The notes: a model not told the origin generated them from the letters alone. Counted from the stretch's first letter, positions 23,547 to 60,314 are shown. The stretch is 64,000 bases of DNA from an uncultured Gammaproteobacteria bacterium (GCA_963764725.1 CAVXTM010000011.1:1-64000), one strand, 5' to 3'. Numbers and translations: made by a program.

Positions 23547-23570
23547 GGTTGAATGTCTACATCCATGGTT

Positions 23571-23716
23571 TAGGGAAGCTCTCCAAACTTACTGCGCAGC
23601 CCATCTGCTTTGTCGCGTGCTCGCTGGTCGCTCGCCTATCTACCTGATATGTCTCGCGACTCGCTCCGCGGCTTCGCGCATCTGCTTGCTCGCGACACTT
23701 TTGCAGAGCTTCCTTC
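23571..23716. repeat. MITE-like element, subfamily B, copy 2
   Basis: TIRs ggaagctct / agagcttcc; inverted copy of 17768-17916. Confidence 0.8.
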
Positions 23717-23874
23717 GCAGTGGACTTATGAACGCGTTGACCGACCCCGGTAAGGTCTTGAAAACAGCGTCAGAAACCTCGGCAGCACTTCAGAATGGCG
23801 ACTTCGACCAACCTCGGGGATATGCTAATGTTGCTATTCTACTGCATTCGTATGAGTAATTACTAAGACCGCCG

Positions 23875-24957
23875 ATGAAGGATTCTTTGCGCATAAAACT
23901 CGAACGGCTGCGCGACAGGCTGTCAGAGTTAGATCACCTGCTTGCCGATCAACGGGTGATCAACGATCAAGTGGCTTTCAGAGCGCTTGGGCGGGAATAT
24001 GCCGAGCTGAGCCCGGTCGTGTCGTGCTTCGGCGAGCATTTGCAAAACCGCAAGGCGATCGAGGCAGCCAAGGAGATACTTAACGATGGCGATCCCGAAC
24101 TGCGGGCCCTGGCCGCGGAAGAACTGAAGGAGGCCACGGCAAAGGACACGCGTCTCGAACGGGAACTTCATGCCTACTTGCTCCCGAGCGACCCCGCGGA
24201 TAACAACAACATCTTCCTCGAGGTGCGGGCGGGAACCGGCGGCGGCGAGGCGGCGCTGTTCGCGGGCGATCTCTTCAGGATGTATACGCGCTACGCAGAA
24301 CTGAGGTCATGGGGCATCGAGATCCTCAGCGCCAGCCGCACCGAGGGCGGGGGTTACAAGGAAATTATCGCCCGCGTTGCCGGGCGCGGGGCATACTCGA
24401 GACTTAAATTCGAGTCCGGGGTGCACCGGGTTCAACGGGTGCCAGCAACCGAGGCGCAAGGCCGCATACATACCTCCGCTTGCACGGTCGCCGTGCTGCC
24501 GGAAGCCGATGAGGTCACGAACATCGAGATCTCGCCCTCCGATCTTCGCATTGATACGTTCCGGGCATCGGGCGCCGGCGGACAGCATGTTAATAAAACC
24601 GATTCCGCGATCCGCATCACGCACCTACCGACGGGGCTGGTCGTGGAGTGCCAGGAAGAACGCTCCCAACATAAGAACCGCGCCCGCGCGCTGAGCCTGC
24701 TGCGGTCAAGGCTCCTGTCCGCCGAGCGCGAACGGCAGCGCGCGGAACAAGCGGAGAGCCGCCGCATCCTGGTCGGCAGCGGGGATCGGTCCGAACGCAT
24801 CCGGACCTACAATTTTCCGCAAGGCCGGCTCACCGATCACCGCATCAATCTCACCCTGTATAAGCTTAACGATATTCTCGAAGGACAGATCGACCTCGTC
24901 ATCGATCCGCTTATCAGCGAGCATCAGGCGGAGTTGATGGCGGCTACTGGTGCTTAA
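23875..24957 (+). CDS. prfA: Peptide chain release factor 1
   Basis: PAT (PxT) motif, [22 protein letters not shown]. Confidence 0.98.
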
Positions 24958-25819
24958 TCAGAAGCGGCCGCGCTCACCAACCATTGGGTCCATCATCGCG
25001 GAGGCCGAGCGCAAGCTCGCTAGGTTGGGGTCGGCACGGCTCGACGCCGAGTTGTTACTGGCTAAACTCCTCGGTGTCAGCCGCGCCCATCTCTACGCCT
25101 ATCCCGAGCGCCCCTTACCGGTGCGCGCGGCTATAAGGTATGGGCGGGTCATCGACGAGCGCGCCCGCGGCGTTCCGCTCGCCTATTTGGCCGGATCGCA
25201 CGAGTTCTGGTCGTTAGAGATCACGGTTAACCCAAACACCCTTATCCCGCGTCCGGAAACCGAGCACCTCGTGGAAACCGCGCTCGCCCTGATTCACTCC
25301 CACGGCCTGCGTACGGTGGCGGATCTCGGCACCGGCAGCGGCGCCGTGGCGCTCGCCCTTAAGCGCGAAGTTCCATCGCTCGGAGTGTTCGCCACAGATA
25401 TTTCTCCGCAAGCCCTCGTGGTCGCGCGGCGCAACGTTAAGGTGCTGGGGCTGTCCGGCATTAAGTTACTCCGGGGAGACTGGTACCGAGCGTTGCCCGA
25501 GCGACGATTTGATCTGATTGTGTCGAACCCCCCTTACGTGGCCTCGGACGACCCGCGCCTTCGCATGGGCGAAATCCGCTTCGAGCCTTTGATCGCCCTT
25601 GACGGAGGCCGTGACGGACTGGAAGCGATCCGTAAGGTCATCGCGGGCGCCCGTGAGCGCTTGCAAGCGGGCGGCTGGCTTGCGATCGAGCACGGACCCG
25701 AGCAAAGAAAACCGGTCGAGACTCTGTTCGGTGCGCACGGATTTCGTTCCATCGGGTGCGTTCGTGATTATGCCGGCCATGAGCGCATCTGCCTTGGGCG
25801 CTTTGTCGTGGCGGATTGA
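24950..25819 (+). CDS. prmC: Release factor glutamine methyltransferase
   Basis: [21 protein letters not shown]. Confidence 0.97.
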
Positions 25820-41756: not shown

Positions 41757-43724
41757 ATGAACGGTAGAGTTCGATTTGACGGTAAGGTAAGACGTTCTCT
41801 GAGGATTAGTCTCATCATTCTAATAGGGGCTAGCCTGCTCGGGAGCGGTTGTACAACAACCTCCACTGCGCCATATCAAACTTACCATCCGGAACTGGAA
41901 TATCTGAAATCGTTGCATCAGGCTGGCCCTGTCACTGACCCTCAGATCGTCGTTTTCTTGATGCAGCAATTCATGAATACCAACCAGTTGCAAGCTGGCA
42001 TCGCGTTCTTCGACTCCTTCCTGGAAAAATACGAAGCTCAGCTTTCCTCCGAGCAAAAGGCATTATATCTTGGCACTTTGGGCGTTCTGCGCGCCTCCTA
42101 TGCCAATCAGGTGCCTCTCTGGAGACGAATCGCATGGGTGAATGAGACCATCGAGATTCTGGAAAACGCAAGGACGCTGAGCAACAACGAGAGCTTTCTG
42201 GTACGGTGGATGACCGGGGTAGTCTATGCACAGCTTCCTGATCGCTTTAACAAGGCCGACGCAGCCATTGCCGATCTCAAATGGTGCGTGGATGATATCT
42301 CTAAAGCACCCCATACGGGTTGGCTGCGGGAGGTTTTCTATCACCTGGCTGTTCTGTACAAGCGGACCGACGATCAACAACAGGCTCAGGCCTATCTGCA
42401 ATGGAGCGGCTATGACAGCTTTGACAAGCGCATCACGCTGACCACCCCGTATGCGGTCAATGCCACGAAAGGCCATACATTCTATCCCAAGCGCCTAAGA
42501 GAGATCATTCCCGGAAAGATATTTAATCTCTCGGGCTTCGAATTCACCGAGTATTACTTCGTTGTGTCAAAGGACGGCAAGGAGCTGATATCAATCGATG
42601 CCGGAACAAGGCCCGACTCGGCGCAGGGGGCCTATGAGTTCCTGCGGAATCGTTTTCCTGATCTGCCCCCGCTGACGACGGTGTTTGTGACCCATGCCCA
42701 CTGGGACCATATTGGCGGACACAGCTATTTCCGTCAGTTGGGTCCGCAGGTGAAGTTCTATGCCAGGGACAATTACCGCAAGGAGCTAGAGATCGTCACT
42801 CAAGGCTTCAGAGGATATAGATTTACGTACTTTTTCGGTACTGATTTCAAAGAAGAATTCATGTCTAATTTCAAGCCCGATGTCGCTCTTGGCCAGCGTA
42901 CTGAAGTCACCGTGGGAGGGACGCATTTTGATCTCATTCCAGTCCCGGGCGGAGAGACAATCGATGGAATGTTTATCCATGTGCCCGAGCACGGCGTCCT
43001 TTTCGTCGGGGATTTTATTATGCCGTATATCGGCGCCCCTTTCTTAGAGGAGGGCAACATCCAAGGGCTCTTCGAGGCCATTGATGTGGCTGTATCCTTA
43101 AACCCCCAACATCTGCTCCATGGGCATGAGCCGTTAACTCGGCTCTGGAGCTCTCCGGCGCTGCTCGCCAAAGTCAAAACCCATCTCCAGTGGCTTTATC
43201 GAGAGACGCTCAAGGGCATCGGGACCGGGATGGACCGGACAGCGATTCATCATCAAAACTTGATGCCGCCATTCATCCATCAAAATCCCGATGTGCAGCT
43301 GCCTTTCCTCGTCATGCGCGAGAATGTGATCAATCGACTATACGATCAGAATGTCGGTTACTGGCAGCCCGACCTTCAGGGCATGGACCATCTTAGCCAG
43401 GAAGAATTTGGATCGTTATTGACGCGCTACTTCGAGCTTTCAGAACAAGAATTAGCCAGCGCCATCGAAAAGATGTTGAGCAGCGGCGACCACGAGCTCG
43501 GAGCGCGCACAACGACATGGGCGCTTACTCAATATCCGTCCAACAAGAAATTGCAAGAGCTTAAGGAGCTTGCTTTCTTGAAACTAAAAGAGAAATACCA
43601 GGAGTTCAATCCCTTCAAGTTCATTATCTACTCACAGTCTATCCATCATGAAACGCCCCAGTTGCAGCAATTCCTGCCTAACAAAGGCATTGAGGCGGAC
43701 GCTGAACCTCCCCCGAAAAAGTAG
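41757..43724 (+). CDS. Lipoprotein with helical/TPR-like N-terminus and metallo-beta-lactamase-fold hydrolase domain
   Basis: Lipobox LLGSGC; THAHWDH, GGET, VGDF and HGH motifs. Confidence 0.85.
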   Translation: MNGRVRFDGKVRRSLRISLIILIGASLLGSGCTTTSTAPYQTYHPELEYLKSLHQAGPVTDPQIVVFLMQQFMNTNQLQAGIAFFDSFLEKYEAQLSSEQKALYLGTLGVLRASYANQVPLWRRIAWVNETIEILENARTLSNNESFLVRWMTGVVYAQLPDRFNKADAAIADLKWCVDDISKAPHTGWLREVFYHLAVLYKRTDDQQQAQAYLQWSGYDSFDKRITLTTPYAVNATKGHTFYPKRLREIIPGKIFNLSGFEFTEYYFVVSKDGKELISIDAGTRPDSAQGAYEFLRNRFPDLPPLTTVFVTHAHWDHIGGHSYFRQLGPQVKFYARDNYRKELEIVTQGFRGYRFTYFFGTDFKEEFMSNFKPDVALGQRTEVTVGGTHFDLIPVPGGETIDGMFIHVPEHGVLFVGDFIMPYIGAPFLEEGNIQGLFEAIDVAVSLNPQHLLHGHEPLTRLWSSPALLAKVKTHLQWLYRETLKGIGTGMDRTAIHHQNLMPPFIHQNPDVQLPFLVMRENVINRLYDQNVGYWQPDLQGMDHLSQEEFGSLLTRYFELSEQELASAIEKMLSSGDHELGARTTTWALTQYPSNKKLQELKELAFLKLKEKYQEFNPFKFIIYSQSIHHETPQLQQFLPNKGIEADAEPPPKK

Positions 43725-43749
43725 ACACCTTGATCTAACCAAAGAGGAG

Positions 43750-44235
43750 GTGTCGGATGCCGAGAGCAGGGCTGTCCCGTTATCCTTGCCAGCCGCCGCG
43801 ACGCTGGTCTTTGAGGATGACAAAGCGCATTTCAGCCGTGCCGAGCTGGACCAGATGCTGGCGCCGATTGCGCTCTATCCGGACACGGTGCTCTCCCACG
43901 TCCTAATTGCTTCGACGTATCCACTCGAAGTGGTCGAGGCGGCGCGGTGGTCGCACCGGCACCCGGATCTACAGGGCGAAGAGGCGGTGGAGGCGATCGA
44001 GGACATGGACTGGGACCCCAGCGTCAAGGCCGAGGTGAATCCCCGGATGCCGCGGGTGGAAGGCATCCCGGAGATTGGCGGCCATCGTGTGCAGGTGTCG
44101 GTAGTCGATGCGCTCGTCAGCGAAGCGGCGATGGTGTTCGTCGTGGTCGAACTGCGCGCCCGCTCTCCGATGTTGCCGCTGCAGCTGTTTCGGATCCGCT
44201 ACTTCAGTGGCGCCAACCTGATCACGCTGTCGTCC
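43750..44235 (+). pseudogene. Chimeric remnant: DUF3300 N-terminal fragment joined to an MFS transporter fragment
   Basis: ELDQMLAPIALYPD.VLS.VL.ASTYPLEVVEAARW and WDPSVKA, then FVVVE.RARSPMLPLQLFR...FSGANL.TL. Confidence 0.75.
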
Positions 44236-44479
44236 GACTTCGTGATTCGAGAGGCGCCCGGCGCTGTGCGGGTCTTCCGTTGTCATGGCGATGAAAGCCG
44301 CGGTGGATTTCGAAGTCGGCTCGCGAACTCACGATACCAACCGAAGGTGGTGGCAGGGCTATGCGGATAACTGAAGAAAGTGGGAAGGTAAGAAGCGATT
44401 TGGCCATTGTCGATTTCCGGCATCCCCGAACGACTATTTGGTGGACCAACAATTCCACCAAACCAGAGGAGGCACGAAA

Positions 44480-45008: not shown

Positions 45009-45710
45009 TCACCAGTTCTCACCGAAAGGCCGTGCTTCGACCTCGAACGACCAAGTCGAGCGATGCTGGCTAGTCAGGAGGAACACCGTGTCCGCGACAC
45101 CGTCCGGCTTGACGAAGAACTCGTCTGGCTTATCTGGCATGCGCTCGCGTGTCTTGGGCAAGTCGACCACGCCGTCGATGATGACGACAGCAACGTGAAT
45201 GCCCGCCGGCCAAAGGTGACGGGCCATCGATTCGGCCAGGCTGCGCTGGGCTGCCTTCGCCGGTGCAAAGGCCGCCGTATGCGCCGCGCCGCGACGCGAA
45301 GCAGTCGCGCCAATGAAGATGATATTGCCCTGTCCACTGCGCTTCATTGCCGGGATTACCTGCTGTGCGGTGAGCAGCGCTCCTAGTGCATTGACGCGCC
45401 AGTTCATCTCAAAGCCCTCGGGAGTAATTTCTTCAACTGTCCCCCACGATCCAGAGCCGGCGTTATAGATGAGGGCGTCGACGTCACCGAATCCCGTGCG
45501 GATCTGCCCAAAGACTTGTTCGACTGACGCCGGCTCGGTCACGTCGCACGCATAGGCCTGCGCGCCATCGAGTTCATGGGCGAGTGTCTGGCTGAAATCG
45601 ATGGTGCGCGCGAGCAACGCGACACGGTAGCCTTCTTTTGAGAACCGTCGGGCGATGGCCGAGCCATTGCCCGGTCCTACACCGACGACTGCGCATATCG
45701 GTTTGCTCAT
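45009..45710 (-). CDS. SDR-family oxidoreductase
   Basis: VVGVGPGNG, YNAG, GATASRRG, FAPAK. Confidence 0.92.
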   Translation of the reverse strand: MSKPICAVVGVGPGNGSAIARRFSKEGYRVALLARTIDFSQTLAHELDGAQAYACDVTEPASVEQVFGQIRTGFGDVDALIYNAGSGSWGTVEEITPEGFEMNWRVNALGALLTAQQVIPAMKRSGQGNIIFIGATASRRGAAHTAAFAPAKAAQRSLAESMARHLWPAGIHVAVVIIDGVVDLPKTRERMPDKPDEFFVKPDGVADTVFLLTSQHRSTWSFEVEARPFGENW

Positions 45711-46126
45711 AATGGGTCTCCTGTCGGCTAGGCGGATCCTTTGCCATCAAACGCCAAAAGTACTTCAGTTATCAGAAATGGACCCCATGGGACAAGGGCT
45801 TAAGTGGAATTTTCGCTCCTTATCATGCCGCGTCGGCCAGATTCTGTCAACCAATATACAGTGTATCTCTTCTCATCCACTACCGAGCGACCTTTGGAGG
45901 TTTTTGAGGTGATTCGCCGCTTCGGTTTATAGCCTATGTTAGCCCGATCTTCGCGATTCGGGGGGGGTCCTACTAGCTGTTCGGGAACCACGCGCTCTGC
46001 TACAGGCCACCCAGTCGCCCGTCTCGTAGGGATAAAAAAGGCGGTTATGTCTAACTTGACACCAATCACCAAAAAAGGGGGAGTATGTTTCGACAGGCCG
46101 GTATCCAGTTGTCTTTTGTCGTCTTG

Positions 46127-46880
46127 CTATTTCATTCGATCATAGGGAGCGTAAATACCCAACTTCTTGCCAGTGTCGTCGCTACGCACAGGATAGAAGC
46201 GAGCAATCTCCGTTATTCTTTCGCGAGTCGTGAGAACATCTCGATAACGGACGCAGCCGTGTATAAAAAGCCGTGCGGTTTTACCAAGGATCATGTTGAC
46301 TTTAACGTCATCGAGGCGCCGGGACAGAATGTCAGTTTTCCAAGAAGCATCAGACCCGATAAATTCCGGGGGACGATCCAGGCTTGGGGCATTCCCAATC
46401 TTTATACTTGGGAAAAGCGGTGAGGTCGGGCCCGGGAATGAACGTAAATTCCCATCCGCTAGAGACTTCAAGCGCGGCAGTTTTCCCGATGTTCTTGAGA
46501 GAAACCCTGAATTTCAGTCGGTTATTTTCAACCCCCTCAAAATTCCAAGTTTTCGGGACGATCCATGCAGCGGTCGAAGCGGAGGCGGCATTGGCGGCCA
46601 ATTCGGTAGCCTTAGTAGTTTTAATAATCTCGTAGTATTGGAAGCCAGCAAAAACAGCAACAATCCAAGCGCCGATGACAGCAGCAATCGTAATTCCACG
46701 ATTAATCTTGTTTTCTCTATCATTTTGTTTTTTGTAAGCGCGACATTCCTCAAGTATGGCATTTGGAATCTCTATGACGGTCCTTGTGACTGGCGCGCGC
46801 CCGCTAGCTTTATCGTTGGTTGGGTTCCCTTCTTTGGAGGAGCCTGGTTGCTTATTTACGGAGTCTTGTTCTGACGCCAT
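46127..46880 (-). pseudogene. Single-TM hypothetical passenger gene, frameshift near 46360
   Basis: TM helix plus LKNIGKTAA, continuing in another frame as LFIHGCVRYRDV; low GC. Confidence 0.55.
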
Positions 46881-46884
46881 GCGT

Positions 46885-47043
46885 TTATTTTTTCGCCTTC
46901 GCTGTCTTGACATATTTACTTCGTCGCTTTTTTGGACGTTTTGAAATGATGCCAATGCGTTCCGGCGAATCACTGTGAATGAGAGCTTTAATCGCCTCCT
47001 CGAACGTTAACGGGTGCAACGAGACCGGTTTCGCTTTTGGCAT
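46885..47043 (-). CDS. Small basic ORF downstream of the IS1595 transposase
   Basis: MPKAKPVSLHPLTFEEAIKALI...; RBS gggaga. Confidence 0.55.
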   Translation of the reverse strand: MPKAKPVSLHPLTFEEAIKALIHSDSPERIGIISKRPKKRRSKYVKTAKAKK

Positions 47044-47092
47044 ACTTTCTCCCTCAATGGCTTTAGCTGAGAACGCCGTAGCGGTGGCGTCC

Positions 47093-47576
47093 TCAGCATC
47101 CTGCTACCACATTCTGAAATATATCAGGATTCTTTCGGTTATTGTGCCTAAACGAAAACTCGGACAAGTACAGCGGCAAATACTTCTTGCTCATGTGGTG
47201 ATGTGTGCCCATCACACCGCGCTTGAGCAACGACCAAAACGAGTCAATGTTGGAGGTATGGATCTTACCGCGCACATATTCGCCCTGGCTGTGCTTAACC
47301 GATTCGTGATTGGTAATCCCTACCGAGCAGCCGATAACCGGAATGATCATCCGTGGCAACGAGAGAGACCCTTTCGTCTACGGTTCTACGCACAAAACTA
47401 TCAAGCGTGGCCGTGTCTGTGTTTCCTATCATCCTGCAAACGACGTTACCTTTGCGAGATATGGCACCGATAACGGGAGTCTTACCGGTAGTCCCACGAC
47501 CCTTGACACGCTTCGCCAAGGGTTTGTTACTCTCTTTTCCGCCCATGTAGGTTTCGTCAACTTCGACTTCGCCCAT
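47093..47576 (-). pseudogene. IS1595-family (ISXO2-like) transposase, 5'-truncated and frameshifted
   Basis: VEVDETYMGG, ATDD..GY, V.HSQGEYVRG.IHT..IDSFWSLLKRG..GTHHHMSKKYL..Y..EF.FR.N. Confidence 0.92.
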
Positions 47577-47899
47577 TGGACACCAGCATCGTCGCGCCCT
47601 TGCTCCTACCGGAGGCCACGAGCGATGAGGTGGAGCGGTATCTTCAGAACTTCTCTGCAGGCGAGCTTTCGACGAGCGCTTGGACCAAAGTAGAGTTTTC
47701 GTCTCTTGTAAGCTGAGGATGGGCGAGCTCGACGAGCGACAGGCTGATGAAGTGAGGTAAGGCGTGGCGGCAGATATGCTATCGCCAGCCTTTCGGTCCC
47801 GTGGTGCCGAGGCTTCCTGTGCCCGGGGATGAACCGGCTAACGCTGCCGTGACGATTTGATGACACTTCGGCGCCCCGGTCTGTGGTTTGCTGGGCGGC

Positions 47900-49204
47900 A
47901 TGGAGCAGATCGGGGTCATCGGTCTCTCGTACCGGCATGCGGATGCGGAGGAGATCGCTCGCTTCGCGATCCCGAAGCAGGACGTTCCCGAGCGCCTTGC
48001 CGCCCTCCGGGACACTTTGAGCACGGGCGAGATCGTCTACCTCGCCACCTGCAATCGGGTCGAAGTTCTTTTCGCGACGGCGGATGGCGCAGCGGCGCAG
48101 GATCGCCGCCGAGAAGTCTTCAAGACTCTCACCGGCCGCGATCCGCAGCCGGGCGAAGCCCGGACTGCGCTTCGGGCCTGGACGGACGAAGCGGCGGTCG
48201 AGCACCTCTTTCTGGTGGCTTGCGGGCTCGACTCCGCGCAAGCAGGCGAGCGTGAAATCGCTGCACAGCTTCGCGGGGCGTGGGACGCGGCTCGCGCGGC
48301 GGGCGTGTGCGGCCCCATCCTCGATCGCATTCTCGGCGAAGCCTTGTCGATGGCGAGCCGGATGCGGCGCATTGCAGCTCATGCGCGGCCGCCTTCGCTC
48401 GCCGATCTCGCGGCGGAGCGCGTGCTCGTTCATTTGGCCGAAAAGCCCGGATCGGTGGCGCTCGTCGGCGTTTCGCCGATGACGCGCCGCTGCGGCGCGC
48501 TTTTGCATCAGGCCGGCGTGTCGCTCATGGTTGTCAACCGTTCGGCGAAGCCGGCGGAAGAATTTGCCGAGGCGGTTGCGGCGTGGCCCGTGACGCTCGA
48601 GCAGTTCCGCGCGAATCCTCGAAACGTCGCCGCGCTCGTTCTCGCCACAGGCGGGGCGGAACCCGTGTTCGACGGCGCCGCGCTCGCACGAATCGCGCAA
48701 GCCGCCGCGGTGCCGCCGTTGATCGTTGATTTCGGTTCGCCCGCCAACGTCGAGCCCGAAGCGGCGCGCGAGCATGGACTGCTCCGGATCGGCATGAACG
48801 AAATGATTCAGGCGGCGCAGGATCGGCGCATGTCGCAGCTACTGCGACTCGCACCCGTGCGGGCCGCAATCGATGAGCGGTTGACGCGATTGAGGGCCCA
48901 GCTTGCGACGCGCGCCATCGGCCGCGAGCTTGCGGATCTGCACGGGACGTTCGAGCAGATCGCGACGGCCGAAGCCGACCGGCTGCTCGCCGAAGACCTG
49001 CACGGGCTCGATAGCCGGCAAAGAGAGCGGATCCGGCGCTTTGCCACGACAATAGCGCACCGCCTCGCGCACCTGCCGCTGGCGGGGATACGCGCCGCCG
49101 CCGCGCACGCCAGCGCAGAGGCAGTCGATGCTTTTTTCCGCGAGGCGCGATTGCGACGCGCGCAGCACGGAGACGCTGAGCACACTGACGAAAGGTCACA
49201 ATGA
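47900..49204 (+). CDS. hemA: Glutamyl-tRNA reductase (divergent)
   Basis: GLSYR, TCNRVE with catalytic Cys, HLF.VACGLDS...GE.EI..Q, VVNRS; heads a hem operon. Confidence 0.88.
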   Translation: MEQIGVIGLSYRHADAEEIARFAIPKQDVPERLAALRDTLSTGEIVYLATCNRVEVLFATADGAAAQDRRREVFKTLTGRDPQPGEARTALRAWTDEAAVEHLFLVACGLDSAQAGEREIAAQLRGAWDAARAAGVCGPILDRILGEALSMASRMRRIAAHARPPSLADLAAERVLVHLAEKPGSVALVGVSPMTRRCGALLHQAGVSLMVVNRSAKPAEEFAEAVAAWPVTLEQFRANPRNVAALVLATGGAEPVFDGAALARIAQAAAVPPLIVDFGSPANVEPEAAREHGLLRIGMNEMIQAAQDRRMSQLLRLAPVRAAIDERLTRLRAQLATRAIGRELADLHGTFEQIATAEADRLLAEDLHGLDSRQRERIRRFATTIAHRLAHLPLAGIRAAAAHASAEAVDAFFREARLRRAQHGDAEHTDERSQ

Positions 49205-49217
49205 CGGAAACTTCGCA

Positions 49218-49316
49218 ATGACGGCTTATAGAAATCCTTTGTCGCACGCTACGCCTTCACGCTCCGTGGAATTGTATGAGCGCGCGTGCCGCGTCATCCT
49301 CGCCGCACGCTCATGA
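49218..49316 (+). pseudogene. hemL: Glutamate-1-semialdehyde aminomutase remnant (internal deletion)
   Basis: SRSVELYERACRVI matches the HemL N-terminus just before PGGVNSP; the frame then ends after LAARS, with its stop coupled to the next ATG. Confidence 0.7.
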
Positions 49317-50395
49317 AAGCGACCCGCGTCTTTCAGCTCACCGCGCTGGTGCTCGTGATCGTCTCCGTCGTGCAGGTCGGCTGGTGGTTGTTCGATCAAT
49401 ACGATTACACGACGGAGAAGGTGCAGGTCGCTCGTGAGCTGCATGCGCGGGAGGTCGCCGCTGCGCAGGCATTGCTGGATTCCGGCGTATCCGCCGACCG
49501 CGTACGAGAGCTTGTGCCGGAAGTGAGCGTGGAGGGCGGAAAGGCGAGCTTTCCCGCCAGCGTGAGCCAGGCGCTGGACAACGAACGCGATCGGCGCATC
49601 AATCAATATGCATGGGAGAGCGCATTCTTCTTGCTCGCGCTTACCGTGTGCATCGCGGTTATCTGGCGGGCCTTGCGTGCCGAAGCGCGGGTGTTCCAGG
49701 AACAGGACAGCTTCCTCGCGCTCGTCTCGCATCAGTTCAAGACGCCGCTCGCGAGCCTGCAGCTGTCGCTCGAGACGATGGCGATGCGCACGCTTTCGGC
49801 CGACCAGTCGCGAACGCTTATCGACCGGATGCTCTCCGACCTCGCGCGCATGGAGATCATGGTCTCGCAGATTCTCGACAGCGTGCGTCTCGAAGGCGGG
49901 CGCGTGGATCTGAAGCGCGAGCCCCTCGATCTCTCCGCCGCCGTGGCGCGCGTGCTCAGCCAGTTCGAGGATCGCGCACGCAACGATCGCATCAAGATCG
50001 CGGGGGACATGCCGCCCGGGCTGCAGGTGCTCGCCGATCCGCTGGCCGTCGATGTCGTGGTCCGCAATCTTCTCGAGAACGCCATTGCGGCCGTCGCGCC
50101 CGTGGGCGGCGGCACGATTACGCTTGCGGCGCGGCAGTTAAACGGCGAAGTAGAGCTGACCATCCGCGACAGCGGCATCGGCTTTCGTCAGGTCGACAGT
50201 CCGCGGCTGTTCAAGAAGTTCTCGCGCCTGCATCCGGGCGGCGGCAGCCGCCACTACGGGACAGGGCTCGGGCTTTTCATCGTGCGGCGGCTCATGCAAC
50301 TGGCCGGCGGCCGTGTCAGCGCGCACAGTGATGGTGTGGGGCAGGGTGCATCGTTCGTTCTCACGTGGCCGATGGCGCCGGTGGAAAGCGCGTGA
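49313..50395 (+). CDS. Membrane sensor histidine kinase
   Basis: Two TMs, SHQFKTPL H-box, NLLENA, DSGIG, GTGLGLFIV. Confidence 0.93.
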   Translation: MKATRVFQLTALVLVIVSVVQVGWWLFDQYDYTTEKVQVARELHAREVAAAQALLDSGVSADRVRELVPEVSVEGGKASFPASVSQALDNERDRRINQYAWESAFFLLALTVCIAVIWRALRAEARVFQEQDSFLALVSHQFKTPLASLQLSLETMAMRTLSADQSRTLIDRMLSDLARMEIMVSQILDSVRLEGGRVDLKREPLDLSAAVARVLSQFEDRARNDRIKIAGDMPPGLQVLADPLAVDVVVRNLLENAIAAVAPVGGGTITLAARQLNGEVELTIRDSGIGFRQVDSPRLFKKFSRLHPGGGSRHYGTGLGLFIVRRLMQLAGGRVSAHSDGVGQGASFVLTWPMAPVESA

Positions 50396-51150
50396 CGACA
50401 CTTCCGCAAGCCTTGCGCACCGTACTGGTCGTCGAGGACGATCCGCATCTATCCGCCGGGCTCGTCGAGAATCTGCGAGCCGAGGGCTATGTGGTGCATA
50501 CGGTCGCAGAAGGCCGCGTCGCGCTCGACTGGCTGCGGGCCGACAACTGCGATCTTGTCGTGCTCGACGTGATGTTGCCGCACATCGATGGATACACGGT
50601 GTGCCGCACGATGCGCGAGAGGGGTAACAACACACCGGTATTATTTCTCACCGCACGCGGCGATCCGCAGGATCGAATTCTCGGGCTCGAAGCCGGCGGC
50701 GACGACTACCTCGCGAAGCCGTTTCATCTGCAAGAGCTCCTGCTGCGCGTGCGCGCGATCCTGCGCCGGCGCGAGTGGTATCAGAATGCCTCCGCTTCGC
50801 CGGCCGCCGCGACCTTGCGTTTCGGAGGAAACGAAGTGGACTTTCGCGCCTTCCGCGGGCGCTCGTGGAACGGCGCAACCCAGGATCTCACCGAGAAAGA
50901 AGCGATGATTCTCAAGGTGCTCGCCGAGCATCCCGGTGAGATCGTCTCGCGCGAGGATCTGCTCGAACGCGTGTGGGGCTACGACGTGTTCCCCTCGACG
51001 CGCACCGTGGACAATTTCATTTTGCGCCTGCGCAAGCGTTTCGAGCGCGATCCGGCCGATCCGCGTCACTTTCTTACCGTGTGGGGCGTGGGTTACCGGT
51101 TCCTCATCGAGGGCGCGAGCGAAGCGCAATCGCAGCCGGATCGGAGGTGA
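50392..51150 (+). CDS. OmpR-family response regulator
   Basis: VVEDD, LDVMLP, DDYLAKPF, STRTVDNFILRLRK, TVWGVGY. Confidence 0.94.
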   Translation: MTTLPQALRTVLVVEDDPHLSAGLVENLRAEGYVVHTVAEGRVALDWLRADNCDLVVLDVMLPHIDGYTVCRTMRERGNNTPVLFLTARGDPQDRILGLEAGGDDYLAKPFHLQELLLRVRAILRRREWYQNASASPAAATLRFGGNEVDFRAFRGRSWNGATQDLTEKEAMILKVLAEHPGEIVSREDLLERVWGYDVFPSTRTVDNFILRLRKRFERDPADPRHFLTVWGVGYRFLIEGASEAQSQPDRR

Positions 51151-51160
51151 GGGTCGAACC

Positions 51161-52120
51161 GTGACGCAAGCGCGCCCGCTCCGCATCGGCACACGCGCAT
51201 CGGCGCTCGCTCTGTGGCAGGCGCGGCATGTCGCCGGGCTCATCGGCCGCCAGCCCGGCGCGCCCTCTGTTGACCTGGTGCGTATCCGCACCGAAGGCGA
51301 CATGCGCAACAACGTGCCGCTCTGGGCCGTTGACGGGCGCGCCTTTTTTACGAAGGAAATCGATCGCGCGCTGCGCGCGAGCGAAATAGACGTCGCGGTT
51401 CATAGCCTCAAGGATCTCTCGACCTTGCTGGAGCCCGGGATCGATCTCGTCGCGGTTATCCAGCGCGAAGATCCGCGTGACGCGCTGCTCTGCCGGACGG
51501 AAAACTCGCTGGCGGCTCTGCCGGCCGGTGCCCGTGTCGGCACGAGCAGCCTGCGGCGCCGGGCGTTTCTCGCGCGCGCGCGGCCGGACATTCAGGCGAT
51601 CGAGCTTCGCGGAAATGTCCCCACGCGTATCGACACGCTGCAGAAGGGCGACTACGACGCGATCATTCTTGCCACGGCCGGTCTCAAACGGCTGGGGCGC
51701 GAGTCGAGCATCTCCGTGTATCTCAGCATCAGGGATTTTCCACCTGCGGTTTCGCAGGGGGCCATCGGTGTCTGCGCGCGCTCGGGCGACGCAGAAACAT
51801 TACTTTGGCTGCGGCAACTGGACGATCCGGCCACGCGGCTCGCGACGACCGCTGAGCGCACGCTCCTGCGTTGCATCGAAGGCGGCTGTCAGGTTCCGCT
51901 CGGCGCGCTCGCCACTCTGGATGACGAAACGTTGAGCGCCTATGCCGCCGTATGCGCGCACGACGGCTCTACAATGGTGAATGCCGAAGGCACCGTCGCG
52001 GCGACGCCCGCCAATGCTGTGGCTCTTGGTGAGCGGCTGGCGGAAGCGCTGCTCGCGAAAGGCGCGGGTTTCATCATTGCGCGCGAGCGCGCCACTCCCC
52101 GGGTGGTGGAGGCACCGTGA
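51161..52120 (+). CDS. hemC: Hydroxymethylbilane synthase
   Basis: IGTRASALALWQA, AVHSLKD, GTSSLRR, LRGNVPTR, EGGCQVPLGA. Confidence 0.96.
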   Translation: MTQARPLRIGTRASALALWQARHVAGLIGRQPGAPSVDLVRIRTEGDMRNNVPLWAVDGRAFFTKEIDRALRASEIDVAVHSLKDLSTLLEPGIDLVAVIQREDPRDALLCRTENSLAALPAGARVGTSSLRRRAFLARARPDIQAIELRGNVPTRIDTLQKGDYDAIILATAGLKRLGRESSISVYLSIRDFPPAVSQGAIGVCARSGDAETLLWLRQLDDPATRLATTAERTLLRCIEGGCQVPLGALATLDDETLSAYAAVCAHDGSTMVNAEGTVAATPANAVALGERLAEALLAKGAGFIIARERATPRVVEAP

Positions 52121-52881
52121 GCACGCCGGGCGCAGAGTTCCCTCCGGTCGTGGTGACGCGCGCCGAAGCGAGCGATGGGCCGTTGAGCTCGCAGCTTCGC
52201 AGCCTCGGCTTGCAGGTTCTCCTGTGGCCTGCGGTCCGCGTGACCGCGGCCGATAGCCCGCTTCTCGAAGCGACGCTCGGGCGCCTACACGATTTCGACT
52301 GGATTGTCTTTGCAAGCCGCCACGCGGTCGCCGCAGTCACTGCGCGTGTCTCCGTGCCGCCCGCCAATCTCCGCGTAGCCGCAGTCGGTCAGGCCACGGC
52401 GCAGGTGCTGCGCCATTGCGGCTGGCGCGTGGACCTCGTGCCAGGCGATGCAAATGCCGGCGCGCTCGTTGCCGCATTCGCGCAGATCGCTCGCGTCGGA
52501 ATACGTGTTCTCTTTCCCGCAAGCTCGCGTGCGTTGCCGACTCTCTGGAAAGGGCTCACGCAGCTGGGCGCCCTCGTCACGCAGGTCGAGGCTTATCGCA
52601 CCGATCCTTCGCCGCTCGATGTCGACGACTGTCGCTCGTGGATCGAGCGCGACGCGATCGGCGCCGTCACATTCGCGAGCCCATCTGCGGTCGTCGAGAT
52701 CGCGCGCGCACTCGGCAAAACGGACTTCGAGAGGCTTCTCACGAATGCGGCCGCGGTCGCGATCGGTCCGACGACGGCGCGCGCGCTCACGGAGCGGGGC
52801 CGCGCGTCAGTGCTCGCCGAGTCCGCCACGCTGCGCGGCCTAGCAAACACCACTTTGCGCCTGATTCAAACGAGGCATTGA
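52117..52881 (+). CDS. hemD: Uroporphyrinogen-III synthase
   Basis: VVVTR, DWIVFAS..AV, AVG.ATA, FASPSAV, AIGPTTA. Confidence 0.92.
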   Translation: MSTPGAEFPPVVVTRAEASDGPLSSQLRSLGLQVLLWPAVRVTAADSPLLEATLGRLHDFDWIVFASRHAVAAVTARVSVPPANLRVAAVGQATAQVLRHCGWRVDLVPGDANAGALVAAFAQIARVGIRVLFPASSRALPTLWKGLTQLGALVTQVEAYRTDPSPLDVDDCRSWIERDAIGAVTFASPSAVVEIARALGKTDFERLLTNAAAVAIGPTTARALTERGRASVLAESATLRGLANTTLRLIQTRH

Positions 52882-52883
52882 CC

Positions 52884-53861
52884 ATGACATTTCCGCTGCA
52901 CAGACCGCGTCGCCTGCGCCAGTCCGAAACCTGGCGGCGCGTCGTCACCGAGACGCGTCTCACGCGCGATGCGCTCGTGTATCCACTCTTCGTCGTACCC
53001 GGCCGGAGCGTGCGCCGCCCCGTGGAAAGCATGCCTGGCATCTTCCAGCTCTCCGTCAACGAGGTCGTCGCTGAAGCAAAACGTGCTGCGGATCTGGGTG
53101 TACCGGCGGTGCTGCTGTTCGCCGCTCCCGCACACAAAGATGCGCGCGGGAGCGCGGCGCTCGATCCGAAGGGTCTCGTTCCACAGTCGATTGCCGCAAT
53201 CAAGCGCGCATGCCCGAAGCTTCTCGTTTGGGCCGATGTCTGCCTTTGCAGCGCGACCGATCACGGACATTGCGGGCACGTTCTGCCGTCCGGCGCGATC
53301 GACAACGATCCTTCGGTCGAGACCTTGGCCCAGGTTGCATTGAACTATGCGCGCGCCGGTGCCGACTCGGTCGCGCCGAGCGACATGATGGACGGGCGTG
53401 TGCTGGCGATCCGTCAGTTGCTCGATCGGAACGGCTACGCCAACACGCCGATCGTTTCCTATGCGGCCAAATATGCCTCCGCATTCTACGGACCGTTTCG
53501 CGAGGCGGCGGAATCGGCCCCCGCTTTCGGCGATCGTCGCTCCTACCAGCTCGATCCGGCGAACGCGCGCGAAGCCTTGCGTGAGGTGCTTCTCGACGTT
53601 GAAGAGGGTGCCGACCTCGTCATGGTGAAGCCGGCCGGCGCGTATCTGGACATCATCCGACGCGTGCGTGACGCCGTGCAGGTGCCGGTCGTTGCGTACC
53701 AGGTTTCAGGTGAATACAGCCTCATCAAGGCGGCGAGCGAGCGCGGCTGGATCGACGAGCGCGCCGCGGCGTTCGAAACACTCACGGGCATCAAACGCGC
53801 GGGAGCGGATCTCATCATCACCTACTACGCGCCGGATGCGGCGAAATGGTTGCGGGAATGA
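52884..53861 (+). CDS. hemB: Porphobilinogen synthase (Zn-binding type)
   Basis: RPRRLR, DVCLC...DHGHCG, APSDMMDGRV, MVKP, AYQVSGEY. Confidence 0.97.
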   Translation: MTFPLHRPRRLRQSETWRRVVTETRLTRDALVYPLFVVPGRSVRRPVESMPGIFQLSVNEVVAEAKRAADLGVPAVLLFAAPAHKDARGSAALDPKGLVPQSIAAIKRACPKLLVWADVCLCSATDHGHCGHVLPSGAIDNDPSVETLAQVALNYARAGADSVAPSDMMDGRVLAIRQLLDRNGYANTPIVSYAAKYASAFYGPFREAAESAPAFGDRRSYQLDPANAREALREVLLDVEEGADLVMVKPAGAYLDIIRRVRDAVQVPVVAYQVSGEYSLIKAASERGWIDERAAAFETLTGIKRAGADLIITYYAPDAAKWLRE

Positions 53862-56691: not shown

Positions 56692-57198
56692 CTAGCGGAC
56701 TTCGACCTGGATCACGCGAGGCCGCGCGGTCTCTGCCTTGGGCAGCTCCACCTTCAGCACGCCGTGGCGGTAGGCCGCCTTGGCCTTGTCCGCCTGCACC
56801 GGCGCCGGTAGCGGGAGAGTACGCTGAAACCTCCCATAGGCGCGCTGCAAAAGGCGGTAGCGGCCTTCACTCTCCTCATGCTCGAAGCGCTTCTCGCCCC
56901 GCACCACCAGCACATCGTCCCGGACCTCGAGATCCAGGTCCTCGGCCTCGAGGCCCGGTACCTCCAGGCGCACCACTACCCGCCGCTCGTCTTCGAACAC
57001 CTCACCCGCAAGCAGCGCCCAGGAGGGTGCCGTGAATGGAAAGGGGCCCTCATTCGAGCGCACCGGGATACCCGACTTCGCGCTCGGGCGGAAGCGGGTA
57101 AGCGCGCTCGCTGCCCGCTCCCGGATATGATTCCAGCCCTCGGAAAGCGACTCCCAGACCTCTTCGAGGCTGTGCTTAAGTTTAGTCAATGCGTTCAT
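56692..57198 (-). CDS. Hsp20/alpha-crystallin protein
   Basis: LEVPGL, VRGEKR, AYGRFQR.LPLP, YRHGVLKVELPK. Confidence 0.93.
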   Translation of the reverse strand: MNALTKLKHSLEEVWESLSEGWNHIRERAASALTRFRPSAKSGIPVRSNEGPFPFTAPSWALLAGEVFEDERRVVVRLEVPGLEAEDLDLEVRDDVLVVRGEKRFEHEESEGRYRLLQRAYGRFQRTLPLPAPVQADKAKAAYRHGVLKVELPKAETARPRVIQVEVR

Positions 57199-57205
57199 GT
57201 TTAGC

Positions 57206-57592
57206 TCACCCCACGCTTACGTCGATGCGCCGCGGCTTGGCGGCCTCGGTCTTGGGGATGCGGAGCGTGAGCACCCCGTCCTTGAGCGAGGCGTTCACCC
57301 TCGTTCCATCCAGCTCACGGCTCAGTGTGAAGCTGCGCCGGTAGACGATCAGCGGCGGGACCTCGGCGTAGACCGGTTCCGTGCCTGTAGATACGTCGAG
57401 ACTCGCTACGCCTTCGACCATCAGGGTATCACCGTCCACGCGCACCTGCAGCCTATCTTTGGCGAGCCCCGGCAGATCGGCCGACAGGGTAATGCCCGAC
57501 TCGTCCTCGACCACGTCGACCGGAGGTCGCACCTCGGTAGCGGCGACGGGCTTTGCCTCCTCGCGTTCGCTTAGCTCTTGCTTCTCGCTCAT
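57206..57592 (-). CDS. Hsp20/alpha-crystallin protein
   Basis: PPVDVVE, ADLPG, YRRSFTLSRELD, ASLKDGVLTLRIPK; start MSEKQE. Confidence 0.93.
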   Translation of the reverse strand: MSEKQELSEREEAKPVAATEVRPPVDVVEDESGITLSADLPGLAKDRLQVRVDGDTLMVEGVASLDVSTGTEPVYAEVPPLIVYRRSFTLSRELDGTRVNASLKDGVLTLRIPKTEAAKPRRIDVSVG

Positions 57593-57620
57593 GACTTTTT
57601 CTCCTCTGTACGGAACAGAA

Positions 57621-58073
57621 TCATTGGATCTCGATGCGGCGCGGCTTGGCCTCTTCGCGCCGGTTTGCAGTGATGCGGAGCACGCCATCTCGGTACTGGG
57701 CCGCGACGCGCGCCGGATCAGCGTCCTCGGGTAAACTGATGACTCGCTTAAACGCCCCCGCGAAGCGCTCCTTCGCGTAGACGTTGATCTTGTCGGTCTC
57801 CGCTGGCAGGTCGGCGCTACGCTCACCAGCGATGGTCAGCAGGCCTCGGTCGATGGACATCTGGAGCTTGCTCGGGTCGATGCCCGGTGCCAACGCCCAG
57901 ATCTCGATCGCATCGGGCCTACTACCAATGGTGATCGCCGGAAAGGCCCCGCGACCCACGGCGCGGATGCTCACCGGTCTACCCGCCCCTCCGAACACCT
58001 GCTCCATCTCGCGCTGCATGCGCTCGAATTCGCCCAGAATATCACCCGGCAACCTCAACAAGGACTCGTACAT
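57621..58073 (-). CDS. Hsp20/alpha-crystallin protein
   Basis: APGIDP, ERFAG.FKR.ISLPED.DP, YRDGVL; RBS ggagg. Confidence 0.93.
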   Translation of the reverse strand: MYESLLRLPGDILGEFERMQREMEQVFGGAGRPVSIRAVGRGAFPAITIGSRPDAIEIWALAPGIDPSKLQMSIDRGLLTIAGERSADLPAETDKINVYAKERFAGAFKRVISLPEDADPARVAAQYRDGVLRITANRREEAKPRRIEIQ

Positions 58074-58679: not shown

Positions 58680-60314
58680 GTGGACGAGCAACCCGACGAG
58701 ATTCAAGGTATCCGGGTATGCATGAATAACCTAATGAGCCTGCTGGCGCTGCCGGCCTTGTGGAGCGGTCGCGAGCCGCCCCACACTGTCGGTATCCTGC
58801 TCGATACCATATTGCGGATGCTGGACCTGGAATTCGCCTATGCCCGAATCGACGACACGGTCGACGGCTCGGTGATAGAGCTGGCGCGGTTCGCTCGGGG
58901 GCGAGCTGCCGCCCCTCGACCCCAGGACGTCGGCAGAGCGCTCAATCCTTGGTTGGCGGCCGAGCCGACCACATCTCCTTTACTGATACCGAATCCGGTC
59001 GGCGAAGGGGAGATCGCGATCGCACTTGTCCGTTCAGGCATGCAGGGCGAAATCGGCGTGCTGGCAGCCGGCTCGCATCGAACCGACTTCCCAACCAAGA
59101 TCGAAGCGCTGCTCCTTAACGTCGCCGCGAACCAGGCGGCAATTGGATTGCAAGACGCTTGGCGCCTGAACGAGCAGAAGCGAGCCGCAGAGGTGCTCGA
59201 TCAACGGGTTGCCGACCGCACCAGTGAGCTCGTGGCGGCAAATGAGAAGCTCAGGCTGGAGGTTGTCCAGCGCAAGCGCGGCGAGGAAGAGCTGAAGAAG
59301 GCCTTTGACGAGATCAACATCCTGAAGGACCAGCTCGCATACGAGAAGCGTTATCTGGAGGAGGAGATCCGCCTAGAGCGCGGCTTCGAGGAGATGCTTG
59401 GTGAAAGCCCGGCGCTACAGAACATTCTGAAGCACGTTGCGATCGTCGCCCCAACCGACTCCACGGTGCTGATTCAGGGGGAGACAGGCACCGGTAAGGA
59501 GCTCATCGCGCGGGCAATCCACAACCTGAGCAACCGACGCGAGCGCACCTTCGTGAAGATCAACTGCGCGGCGATCCCCACGGGGCTTTTGGAGAGCGAG
59601 CTTTTCGGGCACGAGAAGGGTGCATTCACGGGGGCCGTCGCGCAGCGGATGGGGCGTTTCGAGCTGGCCAATGGCGGCACCATGTTTCTCGATGAGGTCG
59701 GCGAGATCCCACTTGAGCTCCAGGTGAAGCTCCTGCGAGTGCTACAAGAGCAGGAGTTCGAGCGGCTGGGCAGCAGTCGAACGGTGCGGGTCGATGTGCG
59801 TCTGATCGCGGCAACGAATCGAGACCTCGCGCAGATGATGGAGGATCGAGAATTTCGCAGCGATCTCTACTATCGGCTCAAGGTGTTTCCTATCATGGCC
59901 CCACCTCTGCGCGAGCGGGTTGAAGACATTCCTATTCTGGTAGGGCATTTTACGGGGCGTCATGCCCGTCACTGCAAGAAGTCGATTTCGAGTATCTCCC
60001 CGGAAACCATGACCGCGCTCTGCCGTTATCATTGGCCCGGTAACATACGAGAGCTGGAAAATTTCATCGAACGCAGCGTGATCTTGTCGCGGGGTCCGTC
60101 CCTCGAGGTGCCGCTCGGCGAGCTGAAACCCGCTGGCGCCAAGACTGCGGATGCGGCAACGCTCGAAGACATCCAGCGCGAGCACATCCTGCACGCGCTC
60201 GACGAGTGCAACTGGGTGATCTCGGGCCCCACCGGAGCAGCGGCGAAGCTCGGCATGAAGCGTACGTCGTTGCAGTACAAGATGCAGAAGCTCGGGATCA
60301 CCCGCGCCCACTAA
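58680..60314 (+). CDS. Sigma54-dependent activator (FhlA-like AAA+ with Fis HTH and GAF-like N-terminus)
   Basis: GETGTGKE, ESELFGHEKGAFTGA, FLDEVGE, WPGNIREL, GAAAKLGMKR. Confidence 0.95.
   Translation: MDEQPDEIQGIRVCMNNLMSLLALPALWSGREPPHTVGILLDTILRMLDLEFAYARIDDTVDGSVIELARFARGRAAAPRPQDVGRALNPWLAAEPTTSPLLIPNPVGEGEIAIALVRSGMQGEIGVLAAGSHRTDFPTKIEALLLNVAANQAAIGLQDAWRLNEQKRAAEVLDQRVADRTSELVAANEKLRLEVVQRKRGEEELKKAFDEINILKDQLAYEKRYLEEEIRLERGFEEMLGESPALQNILKHVAIVAPTDSTVLIQGETGTGKELIARAIHNLSNRRERTFVKINCAAIPTGLLESELFGHEKGAFTGAVAQRMGRFELANGGTMFLDEVGEIPLELQVKLLRVLQEQEFERLGSSRTVRVDVRLIAATNRDLAQMMEDREFRSDLYYRLKVFPIMAPPLRERVEDIPILVGHFTGRHARHCKKSISSISPETMTALCRYHWPGNIRELENFIERSVILSRGPSLEVPLGELKPAGAKTADAATLEDIQREHILHALDECNWVISGPTGAAAKLGMKRTSLQYKMQKLGITRAH

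Follow-up and report, generated by a model that had tools for sequence, protein, structure and literature searches.

The window analyzed here is a stretch of 64,000 nucleotides from an uncultured Gammaproteobacteria bacterium (GCA_963764725.1, CAVXTM010000011.1:1-64000; the genome is called G000 below, and positions are counted along the window). At about 47850-53861 it carries a group of early heme biosynthesis (hem) genes with a histidine kinase and a response regulator embedded between them. We consider it probable (roughly 0.7) that this region is a horizontally acquired, self-regulating early-heme module, and that the embedded pair is of the HemKR type known from Leptospira.

All seven elements of the region lie on the plus strand and overlap or nearly abut, as the first-pass annotation had described:

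47900..49204, plus strand: hemA (glutamyl-tRNA reductase), xenolog; ATG start; Pfam GlutR_N, Shikimate_DH and GlutR_dimer
49218..49316, plus strand: hemL remnant, an open reading frame of 32 codons whose stop overlaps the kinase ATG
49313..50395, plus strand: HemK-like sensor histidine kinase, 360 aa; ATG start; HisKA and HATPase_c; in the order first transmembrane segment (TM1), loop of ~75 aa, TM2, DHp (H140, T144), CA; no HAMP
50392..51150, plus strand: HemR-like response regulator of the OmpR/PhoB type; GTG start; Response_reg and Trans_reg_C
51161..52120, plus strand: hemC (hydroxymethylbilane synthase), xenolog; GTG start; TIGR00212, 315.8 bits
52117..52881, plus strand: hemD (uroporphyrinogen-III synthase), xenolog; GTG start; HEM4
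52884..53861, plus strand: hemB (porphobilinogen synthase), xenolog; ATG start; NF006762, 480 bits

The junctions are tight throughout: 13 nt separate hemA from the remnant, the remnant and the kinase share an ATGA overlap, the kinase and the regulator a GTGA overlap, 10 nt lie between the regulator and hemC, hemC and hemD overlap by 4 nt, and 2 nt remain between hemD and hemB. By every sequence criterion the seven co-oriented elements form a single predicted operon. The HemA protein is divergent, as its score against TIGR01035 (164.9 bits) falls under the cut-off of 209.55.

The hemL remnant can be traced to both ends of a complete gene. Related loci have a hemL at this position; the first ~27 codons of the remnant align to its N-terminus, as far as the motif preceding PGGVNSP, and the last ~5 codons align to its C-terminus. 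The remnant is therefore the product of an in-frame internal deletion that spared the start as well as the overlap with the kinase. The reading frame is open and ATGA-coupled to the kinase in G000 and in two other genomes of the genus, G003 and G005, the latter with an additional in-frame deletion of 18 nt. Among public sequencing runs, a contig of 1372 nt from a cave run covers the remnant, the kinase and the regulator. One sediment run yields a contig variant with 38 different letters in place of 49205-49276, which suggests that the hemL stub differs among populations.

The same cluster is found in many other genomes. A scan of contigs with one genome per species gave 194 relatives of the kinase, from which 80 loci were kept; two of these belong to the sister genomes and the other 78 are referred to as donor-type. 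Gene presence in the latter was scored by tblastn with the window proteins, and the name of the cluster (Steroidobacteraceae-type) is taken from the record titles of the carrying genomes. In all 59 donor-type loci with full flanks the genes follow one order on one strand: hemA-hemL-kinase-regulator-hemC-hemD-hemB. Counting single genes in the loci with room for them, hemL precedes the kinase in 76/76, and hemA (67/67), the regulator (71/71), hemC (69/69), hemD (68/68) and hemB (65/65) are likewise present without exception. Downstream of hemB, hemE follows in 60 of 61 donor-type loci with room (the exception being a frameshifted assembly), and at least 51 of 61 have hemF after hemE. The donor-type hemL is intact with a length of 430-445 aa, and in 38 of 74 loci the kinase ATG is overlapped by the hemL stop. 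As read from these loci, the donor cluster is a predicted unit of nine genes, hemA-hemL-kinase-regulator-hemC-hemD-hemB-hemE-hemF, typical of genomes with Steroidobacteraceae titles. Relatives of the kinase number in the thousands. The 120 best ones listed measure 357-369 aa, three of them at 96-97% identity and 117 at 69-74%, and where their source is named it is Steroidobacteraceae or a gammaproteobacterial metagenome-assembled genome. Among 400 genomes sampled across the phylum no kinase match was obtained at E <= 1e-50, which reflects rarity in that sample rather than absence.

In the kinase, hydropathy places two hydrophobic segments at about residues 6-28 and 103-122, flanking the loop of ~75 residues, and a Pfam search of the protein returned HisKA and HATPase_c only, with no Pfam domain in the loop; the earlier description of two TM segments around a small loop without a known sensor domain is thereby confirmed. 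In an AlphaFold model (28 sequences, mean pLDDT 88.4) the TM1 helix extends to residue 56 and is followed by a short helix and a hairpin, after which an unbroken helix (82-158) runs through TM2 into the DHp part bearing H140, with no HAMP. Within the close family the mean column identity of the TM segments (0.85-0.89) is on par with that of the catalytic core, and the loop scores lowest (0.64); across the family the loop length varies from ~10 to 75 aa. A profile search of 1.84 billion representatives ranked ~80 full-length clusters (~350-390 aa, 215-440 bits) above the generic kinase cores. When 27 of these distant clusters (29-51% identity) are aligned with the kinase, W25, E102 and F105 are invariant outside the kinase motifs, and the consensus reads AQVxWWxxDQ at the close of TM1 and RYxWEGGFFL at the opening of TM2. 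Among solved structures, PrrA, RegX3 and MtrA are the best relatives of the regulator. A phosphate system of the PhoR/PhoB or PnpS/PnpR kind was also considered as the identity of the pair and rejected: the scores remain below the cut-offs (PnpS 130.9 against 400, PhoR 122.6 against 334, PhoB 166 against 296 and OmpR 196 against 331 bits) and the matches span the kinase core only.

Distant members (27-40% identity) were sought in metagenomes with the distant kinase set, resulting in 80 loci. Six of these (L219, L221, L224, L226, L227 and L229), all within the 11 best-scoring ones, carry hemL directly before the kinase, and in these six the series hemL-kinase-regulator recurs. In none of the other 69 metagenome loci, which have generic, core-only kinase matches, does a hem gene stand beside the kinase. 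Looking at the six near-full-length matches only, three have hemL upstream, L220 lacks it despite 1.5 kb of sequence, and two are too short to judge. The gene order in the distant loci differs from that of the window: the GC-rich L219 reads hemA-hemC-hemD-hemB-hemL-kinase-regulator-hemE, and the AT-rich L227, whose kinase of 292 aa has a loop of ~10 aa, reads hemA-hemC-hemB-hemL-kinase-regulator-TPR-hemE followed by a hemJ-like gene. Family TM motifs or a near-full-length match are also seen in L220 (1563-2585), L241 (1181-2122) and L265 (1676-2719), of which L220 is also without a downstream regulator.

A system with these features has been studied in Leptospira, and our comparison draws on two papers. 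In L. interrogans, Hklep/Rrlep (LB014/LB015) is located between hemL and hemE in a hemACDBL...ENYH cluster and is co-transcribed; Hklep has two TM segments with a loop of 32 residues, its function survives replacement of the loop and is lost when the TM part is removed, and mutants require hemin or 5-aminolevulinic acid (ALA) (Louvel et al. 2008, PMC2266917). ALA turns HemK into a phosphatase, phospho-HemR activates the hemA operon and represses hmuO, and the regulator binds TGACA-N6-TGACA, the hem-box; the pair also shapes the response to iron limitation, and the authors left open whether ALA is the cognate signal (Imelio et al. 2024, PMC11426443).

The likeness of the window pair to this system extends over several levels. 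In both cases a kinase followed by a regulator stands in a heme cluster right after hemL, which is a stub in the window and intact in all 76 related loci with room, and in L219 and L227 the pair lies between hemL and hemE as in L. interrogans. Both kinases have two TM segments, a short loop without a known sensor domain and a HisKA domain with Thr at +4 of the His (here H140 and T144). The loop is poorly conserved here and dispensable in Leptospira, both regulators are of the OmpR/PhoB type, and the hem-box before hemA is matched at 9/10 positions in the window. On the other hand, the host is a gammaproteobacterium and not a spirochete, the loop is longer (~75 against 32 aa), the order is hemA-hemL-kinase-regulator-hemC-hemD-hemB with hemL cut to a stub in the window, and G000 has no second boxed target such as hmuO or exbBD. 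No Leptospira chain is named among the PDB relatives, and the Atlas look-alikes come from Pseudomonadota, Deinococcota and Bacteroidota clusters only. In the literature searched (main article texts) the name HemKR is used for Leptospira only, apart from two unrelated texts, and no report was found of a hem cluster with a hemL-linked kinase and regulator in Proteobacteria. The first-pass annotation had proposed a sensor-regulator pair that is dedicated to the hem genes and uncharacterised. The first part holds up, given the linkage in 59/59 related loci with full flanks and a conserved regulator-type repeat before hemA; the second has to be revised, as Leptospira HemKR is a studied system with the same position in the hem cluster, the same architecture and a near-identical box (PMC2266917, PMC11426443).

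That repeat and a second conserved block were found directly upstream of hemA:

47850..47865, plus strand: putative regulator site, direct repeat TGACG-N6-TGACA (hem-box-like), from k-mer enrichment followed by alignment of 68 regions
47884..47892, plus strand: -10-like element TGg TTTGCT, TGGTTTGCT, 7 nt before the hemA ATG; second conserved block

K-mer counting, done without a preset motif on the 350 nt in front of hemA (65 loci), singled out GTGACA (56 loci), TTCGGTGA (39) and TGACCATT (34). After alignment of 68 upstream regions (66 donor-type, G005 and the window), a repeat TGAC(C)-rTTCgg-TGACA is present in 68/68, with invariant TGA and TGACA cores. It starts 47-51 nt before the hemA ATG, except in one locus at 42 and one at 46. 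The Leptospira hem-box is matched at 9/10 or better in 61 of the 68 regions and at 8/10 in the remaining seven. Controls at the 9/10 level gave 0/68 for reversed regions, 0/68 for the opposite strand and 8/335 for random windows of 353 nt from the same loci. G003 has a site identical to that of the window, and L227 has TTACA-N6-TGACA before its hemA.

The repeat is also unique in G000. With a weight matrix built from the 66 donor-type sites, the window site tops the 4.2-Mb genome at 24.1 bits and the runner-up (18.2) is at shuffle level. Among five donor-type genomes the exact consensus occurs once each in four, at hemA, and the hemA site of the fifth has two mismatches. Further regulon sites did not rise above shuffle level in G000, and in the five donor-type genomes hits with one or two mismatches were no commoner than for the reversed pattern. 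The three best near-matches in the donor genomes lie by psd and an aminotransferase gene, inside a dehydrogenase gene and by unnamed open reading frames, and none is beside a heme gene. In L160, from a donor-type genome (G043:C3:890262-890277, minus strand), a perfect TGACA-N6-TGACA stands between genes for a phosphatidylserine decarboxylase and a class-III aminotransferase, which may be due to chance.

The second block reads TAAGCT or TGGTCTGCT across the 68 loci, 19-27 nt past the box and 6-7 nt before the ATG. We take it as a candidate -10 element, in which case the hemA mRNA would be leaderless or carry a very short leader and the box would lie at about -51 to -36. This is a typical position for activators of the OmpR/PhoB type. 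A TTG at 47888 falls inside this promoter-like element, and hemA more likely starts at the ATG at 47900. A terminator scan gave terminator-like sites no more often than chance would.

Two other explanations have to be weighed at this point. The repeat could be a core promoter element (-35-like) or the site of another OmpR/PhoB-type regulator, with the embedded pair acting elsewhere. TGACA indeed covers five-sixths of the TTGACA consensus for -35, and the other strand resembles PhoB-type boxes. Nonetheless, both half-sites are conserved with a periodicity of 11 bp, which is the OmpR/PhoB geometry, the -10-like block is 21 nt past the proximal TGACA and so too far for a -35 role, the site has moved with the pair into a new host where it is the sole strong one, and the Leptospira regulator binds the same repeat (PMC11426443). 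We therefore consider this explanation unlikely. Less likely still is a two-component system that is a chance passenger in the hem operon and regulates unrelated genes: even though two-component genes are mobile and the G000 pair did arrive by transfer, the gene order is fixed in all fully flanked loci, the hemL-kinase-regulator linkage persists in distant members with another gene order and GC content, stop/start overlaps tie the pair to its hem neighbours, and other strong boxes are absent from G000 and do not exceed the control level in the five donor-type genomes.

A more serious rival concerns the signal. In this version the pair still governs the hem operon via the box, but what the kinase detects is iron, oxygen or redox state, finished heme, or the state of the envelope or membrane, and heme synthesis would follow demand or supply rather than feedback. 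The role of HemKR under iron limitation and the reservation about ALA as its cognate signal (PMC11426443) speak for it, as do the conserved W24, W25, D28, Q29, Y99, W101 and E102 in or near the membrane, a location that would also accommodate a lipophilic ligand, for instance heme or a porphyrin. Against this, it was ALA that set off the phosphatase switch in Leptospira (PMC11426443), and the kinase is linked to hemL, the gene of the ALA-making enzyme, in every donor-type locus with room and in six distant loci. All in all we see another signal as unlikely, though it retains an appreciable share of the probability.

Other heme-related regulators are more remote from the window pair. HssRS of Staphylococcus aureus and ChrSA/HrrSA of Corynebacterium also have membrane kinases tied to heme status, with sensing thought to occur at or in the membrane, and HrrSA acts on heme biosynthesis genes too. 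Compared by description only, they differ in being heme-responsive, in mainly controlling efflux (hrtAB) or heme oxygenase and in not being known to lie inside hem operons; moreover, HssS has a larger extracytoplasmic domain plus HAMP, and ChrS and HrrS are multi-pass with regulators of the NarL type. HemX, encoded right after hemA in the hemAXCDBL operons of Bacillus and Staphylococcus, is a membrane protein that limits the flux at the HemA step. Unlike the window pair it is not a kinase and acts on the abundance of HemA rather than on transcription, and by Pfam content no homology between the two was found.

The proposed HemKR-type module is foreign to its host genus. Full-length kinase orthologues occur in two of the eight other genomes of the genus (98% identity in G003, 96% in G005), and the remaining kinase hits (41 genomes) are at most 35% identical and confined to the kinase core. 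HemA is 94-98% identical to G005 and G003 and 55-68% to donor-type loci, against 20-30% to other sampled genomes (~26% in six of the eight congeners). For HemB these values are 96-98% to G003 and G005, 74-86% to donor-type loci and 55-57% to the native copies of the genus. A maximum-likelihood tree of HemB (49 rows, donor-type loci thinned to every third) nests the window with G003 and G005 (100/99) in a donor-type clade of 23 rows (100/99), and the six natives of the same genus group apart (100/100), together with other families of gammaproteobacteria; according to a warning of the tool, long branches meet there. Some rows and figures rely on unpublished genomes (G001, G002, G005, G007, G008, G009 and G012), and the published G003, G004 and G006 agree when taken alone.

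Base composition and mobile-element debris point in the same direction. The GC content of the operon is 66.0%, compared to 59.4% for the genome, 50.7% for the left flank and 55.8% for the right flank, and the donor-type operons have a median of 69.9%; just 1.4% of the 6-kb windows of the genome reach the level of the operon. The left edge of the imported segment is marked by a mobile-element fragment:

47295..47576, minus strand: IS1595-family transposase fragment, PF12762, profile positions 4-97 of 153

The contig as such is native to the genus, as ~24 kb upstream the TPR-prfA-prmC locus is 91-95% identical to that of G004 and G006. No clean before/after site was found for the insertion within the genus, where even the SDR and OYE genes that flank it have a patchy occurrence. 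The first-pass annotation had put forward horizontal acquisition, and the identities, the HemB tree (with the window in the donor-type clade and not branching vertically with its host), GC content, mobile-element debris and native hem remnants together support it.

The surroundings of the insertion gave some further observations. Between the IS1595 fragment and the hem-box, 47606-47770 (plus strand) reads by eye like a fragment of a PIN/VapC-type toxin gene with two stops. The match to DUF3300 at 43648-44370 (plus strand) is limited to profile positions 2-68 of 227, probably a gene fragment, and 43.6-47.9 kb as a whole has a degraded look and low GC content. The distance between the SDR gene and hemA is ~3.7 kb on contig C302 of G003 against 2.2 kb in the window (45710-47900), and G003 may retain a fuller insertion sequence.

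Traces of the displaced genes are present in G000 and its relatives. Canonically, gammaproteobacteria have hemA-prfA-prmC and hemCDXY with hemB and hemL separate. The genus originally had this layout: an ordinary gammaproteobacterial hemA lies between the orthologous TPR gene and prfA in G004 and G006, the window keeps prfA-prmC, and contig C13 of G000 keeps a stub of hemC and hemD with hemX. In G000, however, the native genes are deleted or broken and their function has been taken over by the imported operon, which holds the single hemA and the single hemB of the genome. The former site of hemA is empty:

23547..23874, no strand: empty native hemA site, a 328-nt gap between a TPR gene (21780-23546, minus strand) and prfA (23875-24957, plus strand), followed by prmC (24950-25819, plus strand)

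No hemA remnant was found in this gap. On C13 the native hemC stub (model positions 1-99) abuts a hemD stub (153-230), followed by a hemX-like gene. G003 has a native-type hemB pseudogene with one stop and frame changes, which is 86-93% identical to HemB of G004 against 49-61% to that of the window. The native hemL on contig C15 was kept and is 87-94% identical to the copies of seven of the eight congeners (G002, G005, G007 and G008 being unpublished), and ordinary-type hemE and hemF, 50% and 47% identical to their donor-type counterparts, are located elsewhere in G000. With imported hemA, hemC, hemD and hemB and native hemL, hemE and hemF, the pathway is chimeric and the losses are reciprocal.

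The retained hemL deserves a remark of its own. This sole full-length copy (C15:112307-113573, minus strand) is split over two frames by an extra C after ..PAALAQ, near codon 171. In the congeners the frame is intact (432-488 aa), and the split may be an error of the long-read assembly. If the frameshift is real, G000 is without an intact hemL, since the imported copy is a stub. A second class-III aminotransferase gene (C15:315255-316437, minus strand) is also split over two frames, and a hemL-like paralogue is found at C7:66318-67292 (plus strand; 241.8 bits to TIGR00713, positions 2-344). As to names, the HemK kinase is unrelated to the old hemK, which is the methyltransferase gene prmC and by coincidence stands next to the empty hemA site.

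The decayed genes also bear on the reverse scenario, in which the arrangement is ancestral to the genus and vertically inherited and the change took place in the six congeners that have ordinary hem genes. The only hint in this direction is that the window clade is near the base of the donor-type HemB clade and not deep inside it (82/49, weak). On the other side are the decayed native-type hemC, hemD and hemB and the empty hemA-prfA site in G000 and G003, with matches of 86-95% to the versions of the congeners, the ordinary type in genera g2 and g3 of the family and in other sampled families, and the GC content and IS fragment. This scenario has, in our view, hardly any probability.

Several observations weigh against a HemKR-type module as we propose it. 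The putative orthology to HemK and HemR is drawn from synteny, architecture and the DNA box. The best NCBIfam hits are PnpS, PhoR and MtrB for the kinase and OmpR, RpaB and MtrA for the regulator, all below their cut-offs. The linkage to hem genes is incomplete among distant members, as no hem gene occurs within 1.2-1.7 kb upstream of the family-like kinases of L220, L241 and L265, and L219 has no hem-box match at 8/10 or better upstream of hemA. A scan for sigma-70 consensus promoters was negative, and the position of the box would be compatible with repression too. On the opposite strand the repeat reads TGTCA-N6-TGTCA, similar to the core of PhoB boxes, and it may lack specificity for HemR-like regulators. 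Finally, the hemA operon of Leptospira itself is under composite control, and it was reported to be unchanged in an unstressed hemKR deletion mutant (PMC11426443).

With these points in mind, the HemKR-type module may have come about and work as follows. An ancestor of G000, G003 and G005 would have acquired a cluster derived from the nine-gene form, after which the imported hemA, hemC, hemD and hemB would have displaced the native copies and native hemL, hemE and hemF would have been retained. The imported hemL was deleted in frame, with its start and the stop/start overlap that couples it to the kinase left in place. In analogy to Leptospira, the regulator, once phosphorylated, would bind the repeat at 47850-47865, just upstream of the -10-like element, and switch on all of the operon, the genes of the pair included. 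The kinase may read its signal via the conserved membrane-spanning helices rather than via the variable loop, and a build-up of ALA or porphyrin would then turn it into a phosphatase and the operon off.

More generally, and with slightly less than even confidence, we suggest that HemKR-type pairs are not peculiar to Leptospira but constitute an ancient, widely distributed feedback control of the C5 tetrapyrrole pathway, with a physical link to hemL. The signal pocket would be at the periplasmic face of the two TM segments, formed by the WW..DQ end of TM1 and the Y.WE..FF start of TM2, and the sensor, regulator, operator and enzymes would move as a unit that is able to invade hosts and displace unlinked hem genes one by one. 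As these parts travel together, such a module could enter a new host and replace its hem genes singly, leaving a chimeric pathway, with G000 and G003 caught in the middle of the process.

Outside the operon, the window also contains a tandem pair of HSP20 genes beside the gene for a sigma-54-dependent activator (56692-57826, minus strand, and 58680-60314, plus strand).

Transcriptional control of heme synthesis in Gram-negatives is known in patches, and the one dedicated two-component system that has been studied, HemKR, is confined to Leptospira in the literature searched. The kind of system is thus known. New are that it occurs in Proteobacteria, as a fixed cluster of nine genes found in many species, that its operator is conserved, that TM motifs are shared across the family, and that native hem genes were displaced step by step following transfer. 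No new principle is involved, and the value is for the fields of heme regulation and pathway evolution. The 194 relatives from one genome per species, together with the distant members, allow comparative mapping of the sensing residues and the box against a fixed operator, and they suggest easier hosts for asking what HemK senses. The window itself is a clean case of a regulated cluster displacing genes of a native pathway, with three stages visible across the sister genomes: the import in intact form, pseudogenes of native origin, and clean deletions in which the redundant imported hemL was lost in return.

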